A DNA stretch of 64,000 nt, taken from sequence record NC_135730.1. The stretch is one strand, 5' to 3'. Origin of the DNA: a phage. The notes under the pieces were generated by a model, which ran no database searches, was not told the origin of the DNA, and saw nothing but the letters and a program-made list of their open reading frames with translations. The position numbers were made by a program, and so were the translations under genes. Below are positions 2,698 to 62,653 of the stretch, piece after piece. Positions within the stretch are counted from its first letter, which is position 1; every line of letters starts with the position of its first letter.

Positions 2698-3030
2698 ATG
2701 GTAACATTGGAAAGACGTAAAGCTATCGCCGCCACACTGGCAGACATCTTTTGGGATTGCAACTTAAAAGATACTCGAAATTGTGGCGCATCTGTAGATG
2801 TATTATTCCCACGGCCCACCATTGTTGCAATGGGAAACCTGTTAAACGTAGTGTACGGAGCATGGGACAAAGAAGGTGGATTCTATATCTGGCAACCTGA
2901 CTACGGAGCCTGGAAAGAGGTAAGGGGTGCGGATGACTTTGGGCCTACAGTTGCTAAGATGGATGGCTGGGAAATTTATGTTGGAAACGACATGAAGCTG
3001 AAAGGCGAGATTGTTTACTGGTTACCTTAA
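2698..3030 (+). CDS. hypothetical protein
   Basis: 110-aa track ORF. Confidence 0.5.
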   Translation: MVTLERRKAIAATLADIFWDCNLKDTRNCGASVDVLFPRPTIVAMGNLLNVVYGAWDKEGGFYIWQPDYGAWKEVRGADDFGPTVAKMDGWEIYVGNDMKLKGEIVYWLP

Positions 3031-3050
3031 GAAAGCGCAGGAGATAAAGT

Positions 3051-3296
3051 ATGAGCAAAGGGTGGACATTTGTAGACGGCGTTAAAAACATGCCTCTTGG
3101 AAAGTATATCGTAGCCATGGCTGATGAGGATGGCAATGTAGATTTCGGAGCTTGCGAGGTTGTTCTTGCAGGATCTGGTAACTATGTGGACAAAACCGGG
3201 ATAATTAACGGTCAGTTCTACTTTGATCACAACCCTGTTGTAGCGTATATGGCTATGCCAGAGTTCAAGTTCCCAAAGGAGGGTGCAGATGTTTAA
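3051..3296 (+). CDS. hypothetical protein
   Basis: 81-aa track ORF with AGGAG RBS. Confidence 0.6.
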   Translation: MSKGWTFVDGVKNMPLGKYIVAMADEDGNVDFGACEVVLAGSGNYVDKTGIINGQFYFDHNPVVAYMAMPEFKFPKEGADV

Positions 3297-3486
3297 GCTT
3301 AAATCTGCATGGAACATCGCTGTGGGGGACGAGATCCGTATCCCAGGTGGAAAGACCATTATGAAGATATCTCGTATTGAGTACGAAGGTGACCGTGTAT
3401 TCCACATCTTCGCAGAAGATGGTCGAGAAATTTATATACAGGCAGGTTCTCACATCTATATCCGTAAGAAAGGGGACGACAAATGA
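3289..3486 (+). CDS. hypothetical protein
   Basis: ATG at 3289, 7 nt after AAGGAGG; overlaps previous stop. Confidence 0.5.
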   Translation: MFKLKSAWNIAVGDEIRIPGGKTIMKISRIEYEGDRVFHIFAEDGREIYIQAGSHIYIRKKGDDK

Positions 3487-3815
3487 CAGAGATCATCGTT
3501 TCAACTGCAGGGTATGTATTCCTGACAATCATTGCGCTGGCTATTCTGGTGGCGGTGTATGGATTTGTTATCCTGCCTATTCTTGAGACATTTAGTTTGT
3601 GTCGGTGTTGGAGAAAAGCTTACGGACCACAACCGTGGAAAGACTGGTTCCATTTGGTGCGTATAGCGTTCTCTTATGCCTATGACCACTCTAGCAGTGC
3701 ATGCGTAACCGGGTACCATGCCTACAACTGGAACTGGGAAGGGCTGGGGAGATGGACTGTTACAAAAACTATACCCTTACGGTTGTACAAAGGAAAGAAC
3801 ACACTGGGAGCCTGA
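3483..3815 (+). CDS. hypothetical membrane protein
   Basis: 110-aa track ORF with hydrophobic N-terminal segment. Confidence 0.5.
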   Translation: MTEIIVSTAGYVFLTIIALAILVAVYGFVILPILETFSLCRCWRKAYGPQPWKDWFHLVRIAFSYAYDHSSSACVTGYHAYNWNWEGLGRWTVTKTIPLRLYKGKNTLGA

Positions 3816-15066: not shown

Positions 15067-15084
15067 TTTTTTAACTGAATTATC

Positions 15085-15110
15085 AAGGGGCTTAGGCCCC
15101 TTTCTTTTTG
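15085..15110 (+). terminator. rho-independent terminator ending the + strand early block
   Basis: aagggg-cttag-gcccct followed by TTCTTTTTG. Confidence 0.65.
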
Positions 15111-17500
15111 TCTGCTCTTCCCCCTACCATAAACGGCCCTACCTGGCAAGTGGAATAATTGACGAGCCATCAATCCCACACACTGTACAAATATACATGT
15201 AAAATAGCTATTGCATAACCTTTCATTGTGTGGTAGCAGGGCTATTTTACCCGTTTTCCCTTCCAAAATTGCACGTAATGCCGCTATTGCACAAATTTTA
15301 ACCTGATGCAGATCTTCAATATCTTGTCAACAAATAAAAATTCTTATAAGTCATACACTTACACCAACACAAAAGCGTTTTCTACGTGAAAAATCGAGTA
15401 TAACTATAGCCGCCAGATCTCAGAATTTACGTACGCTCACCATTCTATAGCCTGCTAAGTATTTATTCCAACCATAGAATAATGGAATAGTCAATACCTG
15501 CATAAAATAATTATTCGTTTAAATTGCATAACATAAATCAGCCAGGGTGTCAACATTTTTCGTAAACAGTCCGAAATTATCGCTGTGAATTATCATAAAC
15601 AGAGAAATCTTTAGTCGTCTAATGTTTACTGTACGTTACTATACTGACTGGAATCATTAGATGACTAAGAGAAAGATAAGAAATAATTAACAATACAATT
15701 ATTTTATCTGTAACAATAAGGCAACTATGCAAACGAATGGCATGGCGCGACGGAGTCGCGACATAATATAAAAGCAGTAACCATCACCCCCGTGATAGTT
15801 TGTCTGCAATCTATTAATCAGATCATAGTTGCCTTGTATTTAGTTAATCATGACATAACAAGCAAGGCAACTATAGATCTTCTAATAGTTGCCCTGCTTT
15901 TATATTATGTCATAGAAACACCCGAAGGGGTGACCAAAGGTCACCTGGCATAGCCAGCGAAAGATTATTAACTTGCTAATCGTTATCATGCAAACGAATG
16001 GCATGGCTTATAATTTTTGAGCAAATAGTCTATACGTGAACAGTGAGGCATGCAATAGTAACAATTGTTATTATATCCAGTGTTTAGTATGCCCAGTGTG
16101 TCAAAGGTGTCTAAAGTGTCAGACAAGTTTTTCTCCTCTTTGTCAAGTGCTGCATGAAAAATTTACAATCTGGTATGGTAGCATTTTTGCGGCCCTGTTT
16201 ACATCCAGTTGTGTATGTATAACCCTTGTTGTGTGGGCGTTTAGACGTCTGGACGGTTGGAAGTCTACAGGTCAATATCTAATCTATCGGCTGCTAACTA
16301 TATCCCACACAAATAGTAAGAAATATAATTGTTATATGCGTAAACAGTAACTCATGTTATCAATCCCTGTATGTATCGCCAGTGGTGCGCATAATGGGTA
16401 TTATGTTAAATTGCCCGTAATGATAATGGTTCTCACAATGATATGTATTCTCATTCCCCCACACAAAATAGATTGCAAATGTTGTGCCACTATGTGAACG
16501 GCCTCACCTATTAATTTGCCTCACTGCCTCGATATTTGAGAATTGTTATAAGAATGAGAAGTATTCCCATTTCGTCCGCCTGGCAGCACTCCTGTCGGTC
16601 AGGTCAAAATCGTGGTATAACTGGACCTGTTCAGATATTTCTGGCTGACTCTTCAGGCCTGTGTGGGAAAAGCCGACCCCTCCGGCGGCGGGGAGGGGGT
16701 CAATTAAAAAATTTACGGGGTATATGAAGCGCTCTTCAGGTAAGGCAGGTATTATGGGATGAAACCCTCTTCAGGTAATGATATTTGTGGGTGTGATATT
16801 TGCTGGAAAGCCAGATATGACGGGACTCCCGGCGGGGCAGGGGTAGTACAGACAGGGAAAATATGGAGGATGTGGTTGGGTAAATTGATCAGACAGGTAG
16901 AGTATGGAATATGTTATGAATATGTTAAATATAGAGGTTGAATATCTGTAGGATTTGTGTGTAAAATCAAAGACTTAAGTGGTGTTGTGGTATTTTCTAT
17001 AAATAATTCAAGTTTAATAGGTGATATTTGTCCCTATCTACTTTGTGTGGTAAACAGATTCAGATGAGATTGGTTTACGAGTGTATACATAATATACAAA
17101 TTAAAGATACAAGAAACCCCCCTCCCCCTTCGGCTACCATTCACCTTTTCCTCTGACTGGTACTTAAACACTTATTCAGACTCTTCAGGTTATCACCCAT
17201 ATATCATATGGCAGTGACTGGTGTCCTCCGGCCCCTCTTTCGTCACCCGTCCGCTTCGCCATGCTAATGCCATAGCCAAATGTTCGGTTGTTCACCCTGT
17301 TCACTCAGGTGTATCTCCATACCCCTTCAAACCGAAGAGAACAGAAAACCCGAATTACTCGGTAAAAGAAAAGAGAAGAACTTAATTTTATCAGGATAGG
17401 CAAGAATGTCAAGGCATGACTGCTCACTAAACAAGCAAACAGTCATGTGTGGGAGGTAAGTGATTGTGGTGGTGGGAAATTTAGTTGAAAGATGTGCTAC
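15111..17500. other. 2.4 kb non-coding repeat-rich region at the convergence of the two transcription blocks
   Basis: no credible ORF with RBS; nested inverted repeats 15757-15915, duplicated atgcaaacgaatggcatggc, four ctcttcagg repeats, CCCCTCCCCC motifs. Confidence 0.6.
16672..16705 (-). terminator. candidate minus-strand terminator
   Basis: gacccctcc/ggagggggtc hairpin followed on the minus strand by GGCTTTTCC. Confidence 0.35.
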
Positions 17501-56504: not shown

Positions 56505-57059
56505 ATGAAATACTTTGTAACAAGCGACACACACTTTCTCCACCAGCGGGTCATGGAGTTCGATTCATGTCAAAAACACAGATCTCAGTATGATCACAAT
56601 CTTGACAGTATGAATGCGGGAATCATCACCAAGTGGAACTCTGTTGTGTCACCTGCAGACACTGTGTTTCACTTGGGAGATATTGCGTGCACTAATGATA
56701 AGAATATCAACAAATTGCTCCCAGATGTTCTAAATATGTTGAACGGACATATTATTCTTGTTCGTGGTAACCATGACACAAGGACGACTGTCAGAATTAT
56801 GAAAGAGTTCGGTCATGAGGTTGTAGATTATTACGAGCTTCGCCACAACAAGAATTTGATCTGTATGAGCCATTACCAGTTTGCAAAGTGGAACAGAAAG
56901 CCTCACGGATCAGTCCAACTGTTCGGTCATGCTCACGGAACCACACAGCAGTTGTTTGGCAGGCAGTTTGATGTCGGTTGGGATGTGTGGGGGAGACTCT
57001 TACCATTGGAAGAGGCATACCGTATTGCAATGAGTCTTGCTATTGACAGCGGGGAGTAA
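56505..57059 (+). CDS. calcineurin-like metallophosphoesterase
   Basis: ATG at 56505 (MKYFVTSDTHF) within track ORF; GDI, GNHD and HAHG metal-binding motifs. Confidence 0.7.
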   Translation: MKYFVTSDTHFLHQRVMEFDSCQKHRSQYDHNLDSMNAGIITKWNSVVSPADTVFHLGDIACTNDKNINKLLPDVLNMLNGHIILVRGNHDTRTTVRIMKEFGHEVVDYYELRHNKNLICMSHYQFAKWNRKPHGSVQLFGHAHGTTQQLFGRQFDVGWDVWGRLLPLEEAYRIAMSLAIDSGE

Positions 57060-57106
57060 TCCCTGCTATTTTAAAGAAAATTGCCACACAAGGAGAATCA
57101 GGAGAT

Positions 57107-57457
57107 ATGAAAGATGGGGATAAGCTGCTATATCTTAAAGTCCCCCTTGAAATACTGTCTATGTCAAAAGTTTTGAATGACACAACTGGGGAGGTTGTTG
57201 TTCTTGACTTATATGACAAGATCGTATACTGCTACCTGCACAACTGGTATAAGCTTGGAGGAAATTCACGCTTCACACCCAGCACAAGGAAAATTGCAGC
57301 AGATGTTGGGATAAAGAAAACAAAAGCAGCAGCGTGCGTTAAAACTTTAGAATGTGCAGGAGTGGTTGAAATATCCACACAAGGGAGAGGTAAAAGATGT
57401 ACATTTTCCAAAGTTTTGCCACCAGAAGAGGTTATTCGAATGTCAACAACTGGTTAG
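57107..57457 (+). CDS. hypothetical protein, possible DNA-binding protein adjacent to iterons
   Basis: 116-aa track ORF; CAGGAGA RBS. Confidence 0.55.
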   Translation: MKDGDKLLYLKVPLEILSMSKVLNDTTGEVVVLDLYDKIVYCYLHNWYKLGGNSRFTPSTRKIAADVGIKKTKAAACVKTLECAGVVEISTQGRGKRCTFSKVLPPEEVIRMSTTG

Positions 57458-57531
57458 ACCAGTAAAAACTTAAATATCTGTACTATAAGGATTAGTATGT
57501 TTTATGTTCGCTCTGGAACAGAGGTTAGTAA

Positions 57532-57760
57532 CTGTCCGTGATACGGACACTACTGTCCGTCACGCGGACACATCTGCCCGTAATACGGACACTAACTGTC
57601 CGTGATACGGACACATAAAGAATATAACTAAAATAACTAAATAATAAAAATAAAAGATCTAGTACTTATGGTACTAAGTACATATACTTAACTTATGTAG
57701 AATATACTAGATCCTAAGTACCATGTTTTAAAATTATTACTTACTATAGGTAGTGTCGGC
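57532..57760. promoter_or_regulatory. origin-like element: four palindromic iterons plus AT-rich tract
   Basis: CTGTCCGTgATACGGACAc repeated at about 57532, 57553, 57574, 57596 (21-22 bp period), then about 150 bp of AT-rich DNA. Confidence 0.55.
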
Positions 57761-58010
57761 CCTTCATTGGCACTCGCCTACGAGGGGCGAGATGCCGGGC
57801 CTCCTTGGTGCACACAATAACAGAAGTGCATACATGCAGGTCTGTTAACATGTGTGGGAGCGAAGCGATAGCGCAGGCCAAAGGCCGAGCACTGATGTGG
57901 ACCACCGACGAAAGCTTGCCAGCGCCGTAAGGAGTCGGTTGAGAGTCTCCCGCGCGAGCTTGGATGAAGTTTATGTGTGGAAACTGACAAGAAGGCCCCT
58001 AAATCGCTCC
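57760..58010. other. GC-rich structured segment (candidate ncRNA or cis-element)
   Basis: about 250 bp GC-rich island with many short hairpins; only a spurious-looking minus ORF. Confidence 0.3.
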
Positions 58011-58116
58011 ACAGCTATATAAACTATACCAGGTAATGCAATCGCACCAGTTTGATAGAAAAGCTCGTTACAAAGTGATACAGTGAGTTTTTCTATAACT
58101 TGAAGAGGAGGCAGCT

Positions 58117-58695
58117 ATGGGTTCACGCAAAGATGACCGTGAAAAGATTGCAAAACGTTATCAGAATGAAGAACAGATGGAGAAAACTTTCAAGTGGAAG
58201 CCTGGTTTCCAGCGTAATCATTCTAACGCTCGTGATCGTAAGCATCCGGATAAGTGGCTAACACCGCCAAATGATGGCATGCAGGTTGGTGATGAGAAGG
58301 AGATGTCACCTGGAAAAGATGGCAACTACATTCGCACTAAGGAAGCTGGTCCAAAGGATGACAGCTATCTTGTAGATAAGGTTCTTAATGGTATTGATGT
58401 AGATGTTGACACTGCACGAAACCTTTTTCTTGGTTGGTATCGTACAGGGTTTTTCGACATCAAGGCTATTCGTCGTGTTTGCGATATTAAAAAGTCTGCC
58501 TATGATGATGACTCCCTACATCGCACTCTGAGACAATACTCAGAGAGATACGGTCATCCAGTTATCACTCTTGACGATATTAACGAAGTGATGTATCATG
58601 CAGAGGTTGTTGCAGGTAGATTCGGTGATGCATATCTAGATATCCTTTCTGCAAAGGATGAGGTAATGTTAAATAAGATTTACTATGAACGCTGA
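58117..58695 (+). CDS. hypothetical protein
   Basis: 192-aa track ORF; AGAGGAGG RBS. Confidence 0.65.
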   Translation: MGSRKDDREKIAKRYQNEEQMEKTFKWKPGFQRNHSNARDRKHPDKWLTPPNDGMQVGDEKEMSPGKDGNYIRTKEAGPKDDSYLVDKVLNGIDVDVDTARNLFLGWYRTGFFDIKAIRRVCDIKKSAYDDDSLHRTLRQYSERYGHPVITLDDINEVMYHAEVVAGRFGDAYLDILSAKDEVMLNKIYYER

Positions 58696-59213: not shown

Positions 59214-59239
59214 GGTTGTTTTCGTGTATCATGATGAAT

Positions 59240-59500
59240 ATCCAATTTAAAGATGAATTTGATGGCTTTATCTCTGGATGCTTTGAAACAGGGTTCGGAG
59301 AAGGCTGAGTTCCCCTTAGAGGGCTTGATAGTGCACCACACTTAAAATGGTAGGGGCAGCCAGCACATGACGATGTGACCCCAGCCAACCTGTAACAAGG
59401 TCGAGCCGAAGCGCGGGTAATAGGCCTCTGGTAACCCACTTGGTGGGTCTTGCTGGTCCAGGACGCTGGACAAGTCGCAGGGAATACCACCCTGCGGCGA
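59240..59500. other. GC-rich structured segment (candidate ncRNA or packaging element)
   Basis: clean hairpins gtccag-gacg-ctggac and cgcaggg-aatacca-ccctgcg; no credible ORF. Confidence 0.3.
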
Positions 59501-59502
59501 AC

Positions 59503-59531
59503 TTGACAATCAGTATTTGCTATGATAAAAT
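59503..59531 (+). promoter_or_regulatory. sigma70-type promoter
   Basis: TTGACA, 17 nt, TAAAAT. Confidence 0.55.
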
Positions 59532-59559
59532 CCACCTATCACGTGATAATGGAGGAAAC

Positions 59560-60463: not shown

Positions 60464-60562
60464 GCTAGGTAAGCCCTTTGGCAAGGGCGAGGATTTTTAA
60501 TCCTGAAAATAGACGAGGTAGTCGTTGAATACATAGGTGGTTCGATTCCATCGCCTAGCACC
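60464..60562 (+). tRNA. atypical type-II-length tRNA-like gene, anticodon ambiguous (UUU or UAA)
   Basis: good acceptor, D and T arms; anticodon stem only 4 bp; about 29-nt variable region. Confidence 0.4.
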
Positions 60563-61911: not shown

Positions 61912-62336
61912 TGTCTAAGATTTACGGACCGTGTTCTGAAAAGCAGAAGATGATCCTCGAAAACGATGCAGATATTTTGGTAATCGGCGGTGCCGCAGGG
62001 TCTGGCAAGTCGTTCCTCTTGCAGTTGATGCCGCTTAAAATTATTGATGACCCCCACAGCTCTGTGGTTATGTTCCGAAGAACAACCCCACAGTTGGAAG
62101 GTGAGGGTGGGCTATGGCCTAAAGCAGTAGCTATTTATAGTGATCTGCCTGAAAACATTAAGCCAAAGTTCAGAGAGAAGGATCATAAGTTCATTTTCCC
62201 ACGGTTTGATCCGAGCACTGGCAAGTGGGATAGAAGCAAAAAGGGAGCTGTTGTAAAATACTGCCACATGGAGTATGTCCAAGATAAGCTTAACCATCAA
62301 GGTCTTGAGTACACCATGGTTTGCTTCGATGAGGGT
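61911..62336 (+). CDS. terminase large subunit, exon 1 (ATPase domain)
   Basis: Walker A GGAAGSGKS, Walker B MVCFDE; ends at intron 5' splice site. Confidence 0.8.
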
Positions 62337-62653
62337 TAATTTGTAGCTCTCGTAAAACCTCCCTAATTGCGGGGAAATCTTTACTATTAATACCACCAAC
62401 CTGTCATGGTAACATGATAGAGGCTTCGAAGAGAGATCGAAGGTATGGTAACAGTGTGTTAATTTAGATAATCCGCAGCGAAGCATCCGAGAGGATGAAC
62501 GTTCAACGACTAGTCGAAAGACGTAGAATCAAGCGATTCGAAACGGGAGGGTAAGCGGTTGTTGTCGCTTATAAGATATAGTCTGGTCTGCATGGAGACA
62601 TGCAGCTGCCTGAAAAATGGCGGGGCAAGACTAGCGACCTTGCCCGAACATAG
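62337..62653 (+). mobile_element. ORF-less group I intron in terminase large subunit gene (3' boundary +/- 3 nt)
   Basis: all four core elements in order: P AAUUGCGGGGAAA (about 62364), Q AAUCCGCAGC (about 62470), R GUUCAACGACUAG (about 62501), S AAGAUAUAGUCU (about 62573). Confidence 0.75.

Follow-up and report, generated by a model that had tools for sequence, protein, structure and literature searches.

The window, i.e., the whole stretch of phage DNA analyzed in this study (64,000 nucleotides (nt) of record NC_135730.1), contains a locus in which the gene for a 116-amino-acid (aa) winged-helix protein is followed by an array of four palindromic repeats (iterons) and an AT-rich tract. The features of this locus, which we regard as a probable replication origin, are summarized in Table 1, and coordinates refer to the window unless another sequence is named. 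More than 100 GenBank entries for rV5-like myoviruses (genus Vequintavirus) matched the 3.5 kb around the array at 98–99.8% identity, with rV5, FFH2, PDX, and several labelled "Campylobacter phage" among them. Genome-wide scans were run on MG065646, the closest relative, which is a near-identical whole genome of 137,167 bp.

Table 1. Features identified at and around the iteron array (window coordinates).
Feature	Position	Strand	Description
Sigma-70-like promoter, TTGACA-18-TATTTT with TG	57043..57072	+	10/12, extended -10; consensus match only
Gene for the 116-aa winged-helix protein (rV5 ORF79)	57107..57457	+	Candidate iteron-binding protein
Variable spacer, gene to iterons	57458..57528		79% identity to L004; wholly different in L013
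Iteron 1	57533..57549		TGTCCGTGATACGGACA
Iteron 2	57554..57570		TGTCCGTCACGCGGACA; T·G at innermost pair
Iteron 3	57575..57591		TGCCCGTAATACGGACA; left half-site degenerate (TGCCCG)
Iteron 4	57597..57613		TGTCCGTGATACGGACA; missing from FFH2 record
AT-rich tract, candidate DNA-unwinding element	57614..57745		132 bp; directly after iteron 4
Conserved GC-rich (0.56–0.60) non-coding block	57752..58000	+	Composition, conservation
Conserved 12-bp hairpin	58055..58096	+	ATAGAAAAGCTC / GAGTTTTTCTAT; just upstream of the ribosome-binding site of gene 58117
Next gene, 192-aa protein, function unassigned (phrog_12226)	58117..58695	+	Open reading frame and database matches

Architecture and conservation of the locus

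In the array, a 22-nt unit was repeated four times (57529–57550, 57550–57571, 57571–57592, and 57593–57614) with start-to-start distances of 21, 21, and 22 bp, and the copies were thereby phased at two helical turns. Each unit contained a 17-bp palindrome, TGTCCGT-N3-ACGGACA, and the palindromes together spanned 57533–57613. The four palindromic repeats at 21–22 bp, first noticed in an earlier reading of the sequence (hereafter the original prediction), were thus borne out. Only copies 1 and 4 were identical, copies 2 and 3 sharing 77% and 82% identity with the reference unit, respectively. Iteron-type theta origins possess at least three close, phased repeats, and four such copies were found here.

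When the pattern TGTCCGTNNNNCGGACA was searched for with up to two mismatches on both strands of the 64-kb window, nine matches were obtained against 0.73 expected, eight of which fell inside the array, and none of 100 shuffled sequences reached nine matches. In the 137-kb genome of MG065646, no second site for the palindrome was detected even when one mismatch was allowed. Clustered 9-mer and 10-mer scans of this genome flagged in common only the present array and a cluster of AAGGCAACTAT, which lies at approximately 25.6–25.8 kb of MG065646, two further small clusters near 13.9 and 26.6 kb being detected by the 9-mer scan alone.

An AT-rich tract of about 150 bp with repeats of its own had also been predicted after the iterons; its presence and internal repeats were confirmed, and its length was revised to approximately 132 bp. 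The GC content of this tract was 0.24 per 100 bp in the window scan, with a minimum of 0.19–0.20, against a genome mean of 0.436, and it was the lowest-GC stretch of the 137-kb MG065646 at window sizes of 60, 100, and 130 bp. Nearest-neighbour calculation likewise identified it as the least stable duplex of that genome, at -102.6 kcal per 100 bp compared with a mean of -133.5 (standard deviation 5.7), that is, approximately 5.4 standard deviations above the genome mean. The adjacent AT-rich element of iteron-type theta origins was therefore present here in terms of both composition and computed stability. Within the tract, GTAC occurred at 57662, 57671, 57678, and 57718 and GATC at 57656 and 57710, and an interleaved inverted repeat, ATGGTACTAAG / CTAAGTACCAT, was located at 57668–57678 and 57714–57724. 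In a post hoc check, the 13-mer GATCTTTTATTTT (57647–57659, minus strand) turned out to be the sole perfect match in the 137-kb genome (0.21 expected) to GATCTnTTnTTTT, the 13-mer consensus of Escherichia coli oriC; only this single perfect 13-mer was present, and three tandem 13-mers of this oriC-type form were not found.

The locus was compared with the most divergent Vequintavirus relatives found, in which the 116-aa protein is 86–88% identical. In this set, identity was highest in the iterons (96.5%) and the AT tract (95%), lower in the adjacent gene (85%) and the spacer (79%), and lowest in the divergent intergenic region (70%), and this pattern of sequence divergence indicated that the iterons and the AT tract are both under purifying selection. 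The right half-site CGGACA was invariant in all sequences compared, and changes in the iterons were confined to the 3–5 central bases or to positions 3 and 7 of the left half. In the L004–L009 lineage, for example, position 7 of iteron 2 is C, which gives a perfect palindrome. In contig L013, which encodes a homologue with 71% identity (P0022), the spacer was fully changed and was followed by TGTCCGTCACACGGACA, the next TGTC lying 21 bp further on, at the contig end. FFH2 (L002, 3032–3095) carried three iterons rather than four, a state that may be real or may result from assembly collapse. Two metagenomic contigs (L008 and L013) stop inside or just after the array, most likely owing to assembly breaking at the 22-nt exact repeat.

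With respect to distribution, tblastn with the 116-aa protein in the phage collection retrieved Vequintavirus sequences only, all of them at least 88.8% identical. The syntenic loci of Mydovirus, Seunavirus, and Phapecoctavirus showed a different gene order and no equivalent array was found in them; a 118-aa protein encoded after the phosphoesterase gene in those genera was considered as a counterpart and discarded, being unrelated to the 116-aa protein. An iteron scan of IMG/VR yielded 104 loci, all unrelated and mostly lone palindromes, none of which encodes a relative of the 116-aa protein. Searches of plasmids and E. coli chromosomes gave a whole phage genome deposited as a plasmid as their sole match. 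This record, CP057073.1 (L130), contains a complete rV5-like genome that was submitted as a "plasmid" (circular, 137,565 bp) from E. coli isolated from cattle; it has no replicon or relaxase typing and may reflect a carrier state or a contaminating phage.

The winged-helix protein encoded beside the array

The upstream open reading frame singled out as a candidate binding-protein gene in the original prediction was present and encodes 116 aa, and the array starts 76 bp downstream of this gene, past its stop codon. Existing annotations describe the product either as a "putative transcriptional regulator" (rV5 ORF79) or, on the basis of PHROG, as a "replication initiation protein". The protein scored just below the gathering cut-offs of two Pfam families, namely DUF6945 (PF22182; 27.1 bits versus 28) and HTH_36 (PF13730; 24.5 bits versus 25). 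PF13730 was among the precomputed Pfam matches of the cluster representatives P0001 and P0003, and the distant relatives P0011 and P0014 scored above the DUF6945 gathering threshold. No match to Pfam RepA_N (PF06970) was obtained at E-values up to 1, and phmmer against the chains 4PQL, 5KBJ, and 4PT7 gave an E-value of approximately 1.2. An exhaustive HMMER search of 1.8 billion representatives returned ten matches, a profile search of a 5.8-billion-sequence collection returned 19, and a word-indexed single-sequence search returned close relatives only; the protein family is thus isolated.

The best Protein Data Bank (PDB) match by sequence was 4RO3 (the E-value was 1.4e-6 for a single-sequence query and 1.9e-11 when the profile was used), which is the N-terminal domain of RepA from PLE (an element like phage-inducible chromosomal islands), a Vibrio cholerae satellite (PMC7145576). 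A structural model built from 19 sequences showed a predicted local distance difference test score (pLDDT) of 79 and a predicted template-modelling (TM) score of 0.75, whereas a first model from five near-identical sequences was unusable (pLDDT 47). In the modelled fold, two short strands precede a long helix and a helix-turn-helix, after which come a two-stranded wing and one last helix. In a Foldseek search of the PDB with this model, 4RO3 again ranked first (E-value 1.5e-6, TM score 0.65), so that it was the top PDB match by three methods; the staphylococcal RepA_N domains 4PQL, 5KBJ, and 4PT7 (TM scores of approximately 0.5–0.55) came next, followed by generic winged-helix regulators. The model thus shares its fold with the PLE RepA N-terminal domain/DUF6945 over the whole domain and with the N-terminal domain of RepA_N. 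The ancestry of the 116-aa protein places it beside the N-terminal domain of PLE RepA (DUF6945/HTH_36 class).

Structural matches in BFVD comprised ORF88 of phage ICP1 and several annotated phage replication proteins. Odn (Gp88) of ICP1 reuses the iteron-reading domain in a nuclease aimed at the PLE origin (PMC8263062). Odn and the 116-aa protein share this domain; in Odn, however, it is fused to the nuclease and targets a foreign origin, whereas the 116-aa protein is devoid of a catalytic domain and has its predicted cognate sites beside its own gene. A relative combining GIY-YIG and DUF6945 was also found among the HMMER matches. This protein (P0013; 228 aa) carries a GIY-YIG nuclease domain and a C-terminal DUF6945-like domain, the reverse of the domain order in Odn, and may be another origin-directed nuclease.

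While all Vequintavirus homologues are 116 aa long, many of the distant relatives end in an acidic ...DDxx(I/L/V)PF/Y tail, which resembles the C-terminal tip (DDDIPF) of the single-stranded DNA-binding protein (SSB). Relatives with this tail, from uncultured phages, are P0011, P0012, P0019–P0021, and P0023–P0026 (loci L014–L020), and in every contig examined the gene lies 2–3 genes past a divergent point with a 500–850-bp non-coding gap. No compact palindromic array was found in the gaps beside these distant homologues. In L017 and L020 (approximately 2900–3500), the palindrome (T)AGCCGCTTAGCGGC was present in 3–4 scattered copies, alongside further short palindromes that are GC-rich and have 3-nt centres, the GCCGCTTAGCGGC palindromes of these gaps being scattered only. 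L015 carries, next to an AT stretch, a pair of 21-nt direct repeats spaced 22 bp apart, and the corresponding AGGTACA cores proved to be conserved in the aligned sequence of L014, a weak resemblance that was not used as evidence. Finally, nothing useful was obtained when named phages were searched by tblastn with P0018 and P0024.

A candidate iteron-type origin and its alternatives

The annotated origin of lambda was read as a positive control. Its four iterons, each 18 bp long and dyad-symmetric, are spaced by 20, 24, and 23 bp and precede an AT-rich stretch, the same layout as that of the 17-bp palindromes at 21, 21, and 22 bp described here, and in both phages the initiator gene (here a candidate) lies in cis and transcription probably passes through the repeats. 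The two loci differ in that the lambda origin is inside gene O, whereas the present array lies 76 bp beyond its gene, and in that the AT tract is approximately three times longer here. Moreover, no homology was detectable between lambda O and the 116-aa protein (hhalign probability 0.2%; no Pfam Phage_rep_O match), and the C-terminal domain with which O recruits P-DnaB has no equivalent in the latter.

Replication of PLE requires RepA, which in electrophoretic mobility shift assays binds the semi-palindromic iterons of the PLE origin (PMC7145576). The PLE origin differs in having three iterons of approximately 30 bp, which lie in non-coding DNA separated from repA by several genes, whereas the present array adjoins its gene, and PLE is a helper-dependent satellite whereas the phage here is an autonomous lytic myovirus. 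The RepA_N plasmid initiators of Firmicutes (pSK41 and pTZ2162) are alike in that a winged-helix N-terminal domain of approximately 120 aa dimerizes and binds four semi-palindromic direct repeats; in pSK41 Rep, this RepA_N domain (120 residues) binds four Rep boxes and bends them by approximately 30 degrees (PMC5703833). In pPR9, a PF13730 N-terminal domain replaces RepA_N in a working initiator (PMC5703833). The RepA_N plasmids nevertheless have their origin inside the rep gene and an essential C-terminal domain, neither of which is found here, and their iterons converge on a poly-A tract, unlike the present array. By analogy, the array would probably work in the manner of the lambda and RepA_N/PLE origins.

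Regarding gene order, the minus-strand genes left of approximately 55,990 encode RNA ligase, cREC-like, and Sir2-like proteins, and the plus-strand genes from 56,066 rightward encode an AAA_33 kinase-like protein (polynucleotide-kinase-like), a metallophosphoesterase, the 116-aa protein, and small proteins without assigned function, followed by a tRNA cluster. Transcription consequently diverges at a major point 1.5 kb to the left of the array, and the long gene arms on both sides are directed away from the site. The cumulative GC skew reached its global minimum at 65,437 of MG065646, a position equivalent to the divergent intergenic region and 1.5 kb away from the iterons. The rV5 genome paper noted a skew switch at the same place (66,675–66,725 in rV5 coordinates), ascribed every skew switch to transcription direction, and left the origin undefined.

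An iteron-type lytic origin best accounts for the combination of locus anatomy, uniqueness within the genome, conservation, and protein ancestry. We accordingly consider it fairly probable that lytic (theta-mode) replication of the rV5-like phages has its origin at this locus, which would also contain the gene for the origin-binding protein. The original prediction had recognized an origin architecture, iterons plus an unwinding element, and this was supported, though not proven, by the motif uniqueness, the GC and stability minimum, the phasing, the purifying selection, the nearby skew minimum, and the homology of the protein to PLE RepA/4RO3.

We infer that protein binding, bending, melting, helicase loading, and replication start could follow one another at this locus. 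The 116-aa protein would be made early from its own sigma-70-type promoter, and its dimers would bind the four 17-bp palindromes. As the sites are two helical turns apart, the proposed dimers would lie on one face of the DNA and could form a bent nucleoprotein complex, which may be likened to the lambda O-some or to the complex of RepA_N with its Rep boxes. The resulting strain would be relieved by melting of the adjacent 132-bp AT tract, possibly assisted by read-through transcription from the upstream promoter, and the helicases of the phage itself would then load on the bubble. According to the rV5 genome paper, both a T7 gp4/DnaB-like primase-helicase and a PIF1/RecD-like superfamily 1B (SF1B) helicase are encoded.

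Several observations weigh against this interpretation. The protein stops at residue 116, right after the winged helix and one further helix, leaving no recruitment module, whereas its distant relatives (174–217 aa) bear C-terminal extensions, PLE RepA has a C-terminal domain, and the separate C-terminal domain of pSK41 Rep, which binds DnaG primase, is essential (PMC5703833). Because it has no recruitment domain, the 116-aa protein is not a full initiator of the RepA_N or O type, and with a binding domain alone it could be a pure regulator; Odn, a nuclease directed at an origin rather than an initiator, also uses this domain (PMC8263062). The sister genera Mydovirus and Seunavirus lack the module although they share the replication genes, and it therefore cannot be the ancestral origin of the subfamily. 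No local clustering of DnaA boxes and no consensus site for integration host factor were found at the locus, and repeats and AT-rich DNA are also combined in a second non-coding region of this genome (window approximately 15.1–16.5 kb). Since GC skew tracks transcription direction, the skew minimum is compatible with an origin without being independent evidence for one.

If the locus is an origin, one rather tentative and in our view somewhat doubtful form of it is that the free-standing RepA_N-like/DUF6945 domain of 116 aa is the complete initiator of a 137-kb lytic phage, an "origin opener" that only bends and melts, with self-loading helicases (gp4-like and SF1B) doing the rest. The conserved GC-rich structured transcript would then possibly act as an R-loop or primer, and the longer relatives would recruit differently, through their SSB-like acidic ...DDxxIPF tail.

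Instead of an initiator, the winged-helix protein could be a transcription factor bound to the palindromes as an operator or roadblock array controlling nearby transcription, the AT tract serving as spacer or promoter DNA; this is the main rival, and we consider it unlikely. An operator array was also the alternative given in the original prediction. Such an array might block read-through from the protein's own promoter into the genes from 58117 onward, or might control a leftward antisense promoter in the spacer and hence mediate autoregulation. The rV5 record annotates the protein as a transcriptional regulator, no domain beyond the DNA-binding one is present, and its winged-helix fold is generic, although CodY, MarR, SlyA, and LexA rank after the initiator matches and the closest relatives of the protein are initiator domains rather than regulators. 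The OR and OL operators of lambda are 17-bp pseudo-palindromes with short spacers, bound by dimers of CI and Cro, a geometry equal to that of the present 17-bp palindromes with their 4–5-bp spacers; lambda-type operators, however, overlap promoters and occur at two or more places in the genome, whereas the present array occurs at one place and has no conserved overlapping promoter. No copy was found at the protein's own promoter, and there was no second site in 137 kb. In the rV5 GenBank record, a promoter is annotated at the place equivalent to that in Table 1, upstream of the winged-helix gene. Between this promoter and 58,479, no sigma-70-like site of at least 9/12 was detected, a relaxed scan revealing only 8/12 matches in the AT tract and the spacer; the scan covered sigma-70-like sites. 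With no terminator or strong promoter between 57072 and 58571, the array lies inside a transcribed stretch and is probably transcribed through from the upstream promoter, as would also suit a roadblock. The L004 lineage carries in the spacer a leftward promoter-like site, TGGACA-17-TATAAT (minus strand, 11/12), approximately 22 bp to the left of iteron 1 and not overlapping the array, and antisense RNA control of rep is known in RepA_N plasmids (PMC5703833); the equivalent of this site in the window, however, matches at 8/12 and falls within the least conserved part of the region. The operator interpretation is thus weakened by the lack of a conserved sigma-70 promoter overlapping or following the array, and it leaves unexplained why the flanking tract is the stability minimum of the genome and 95% conserved.

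The array could also be another cis-acting element bound by the protein, such as a pac, centromere-like, recombination, or replication-restart site, which appears quite improbable. Small dimeric DNA-binding proteins on repeat arrays define centromere-like and pac sites as well, and the deposition of a phage genome as a circular 137.5-kb E. coli "plasmid" fits a carrier state, which would need maintenance functions. Against this, no ParA/ParM-type nucleoside triphosphatase or terminase gene lies nearby, the neighbours being the AAA_33 protein, the metallophosphoesterase, and the RNA ligase; easy melting is not required for partition or packaging, and the protein family is tied to origins (PMC7145576, PMC8263062). 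A role at the RNA level, in which the 3' untranslated region of the winged-helix mRNA would contain the palindromes as four hairpins that act as stabilizers, processing sites, or attenuators, seems most improbable. Every palindrome can form a 7-bp stem closed by a 3-nt loop (-7 to -8.5 kcal/mol), the array as single-stranded DNA folds far better than shuffles (z -7.5), and the stretch is probably transcribed. On the plus strand, however, the hairpin of iteron 3 is weak (-3.5), and that of iteron 2 is weaker on the minus strand, so that neither strand retains all four hairpins; the natural variants T3C and T7C cause mismatches on one strand or the other, two-turn phasing is meaningless for RNA, and with no U-tract after them the palindromes are not terminators. 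A 7-bp stem with a 3-nt loop is also the form of the N4-type hairpin promoters, a possibility that was rejected, as four copies in tandem within 85 bp do not resemble promoters; nothing pointing to an N4-type virion RNA polymerase was seen, although no search was aimed at one.

Other non-coding elements and significance

Downstream of the AT tract, coding capacity of the GC-rich block in the form of rV5 ORF78 (57852–58022) was rejected, the variable sites being distributed as 8/6/9 by codon position. The plus-strand RNA of this block folded with a z-score of -3.67 relative to shuffles, compared with -2.45 for the minus strand, and several mostly one-sided G-C to G-U changes fit the plus strand, with one compensatory pair only. 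Rfam gave no match for the locus at either the gathering or the E-value thresholds. The block may represent a structured leader or a small non-coding RNA. A second conserved non-coding block, 93–96% identical to relatives and with a GC content of up to 0.63, was observed between two small genes at 59214–59556 (plus-strand z approximately -2.3); the three conserved non-coding blocks of the window showed no sequence relation to one another.

A further non-coding region of more than 1.4 kb (15070–16500) begins right after a rho-independent terminator (approximately 15087–15112) and adjoins the second most AT-rich stretch of the genome. It contains four copies of AAGGCAACTAT in both orientations (15719, 15826, 15864, and 15886) and two of GCAAACGAATGGCATGG (15730 and 15990). 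The box marked "non-coding" on the rV5 map is probably this region, which could serve as a second origin or a pac site or could be an RNA gene. Elsewhere in the window, a group I intron was identified at 62327–62605 (Rfam RF00028, 84 bits), and ARAGORN detected in the tRNA cluster a 99-nt tRNA-like gene with a four-base anticodon (60464–60562), which falls below the Rfam gathering threshold and is listed as tRNA-OTHER in some GenBank records. In addition, 18 near-identical genomes, MG065646 among them, are deposited as "Campylobacter phage" and marked UNVERIFIED; all belong to the coliphage genus Vequintavirus, and the Campylobacter host assignment is probably wrong.

The rV5-like phages are common phages of E. 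coli and O157 that are used in typing and biocontrol and are represented in the BASEL collection. A targeted full-text literature search found no paper on iterons or a "replication initiation protein" for Vequintavirinae or Vequintavirus. The locus is thus predicted to be an origin of a familiar type, so far undescribed for the rV5-like phages, whose origin has not previously been defined. By narrowing the search to approximately 700 bp comprising the gene, four iterons, and the unwinding element, the prediction makes the origin question directly testable, and it offers an engineering handle for origin-trap plasmids and replication-defective phages. A further question posed by the prediction is how an initiator could function if it has no recruitment domain. 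If true, it would extend the iteron-binding domain of PLE RepA/DUF6945 from a Vibrio satellite to an autonomous coliphage.

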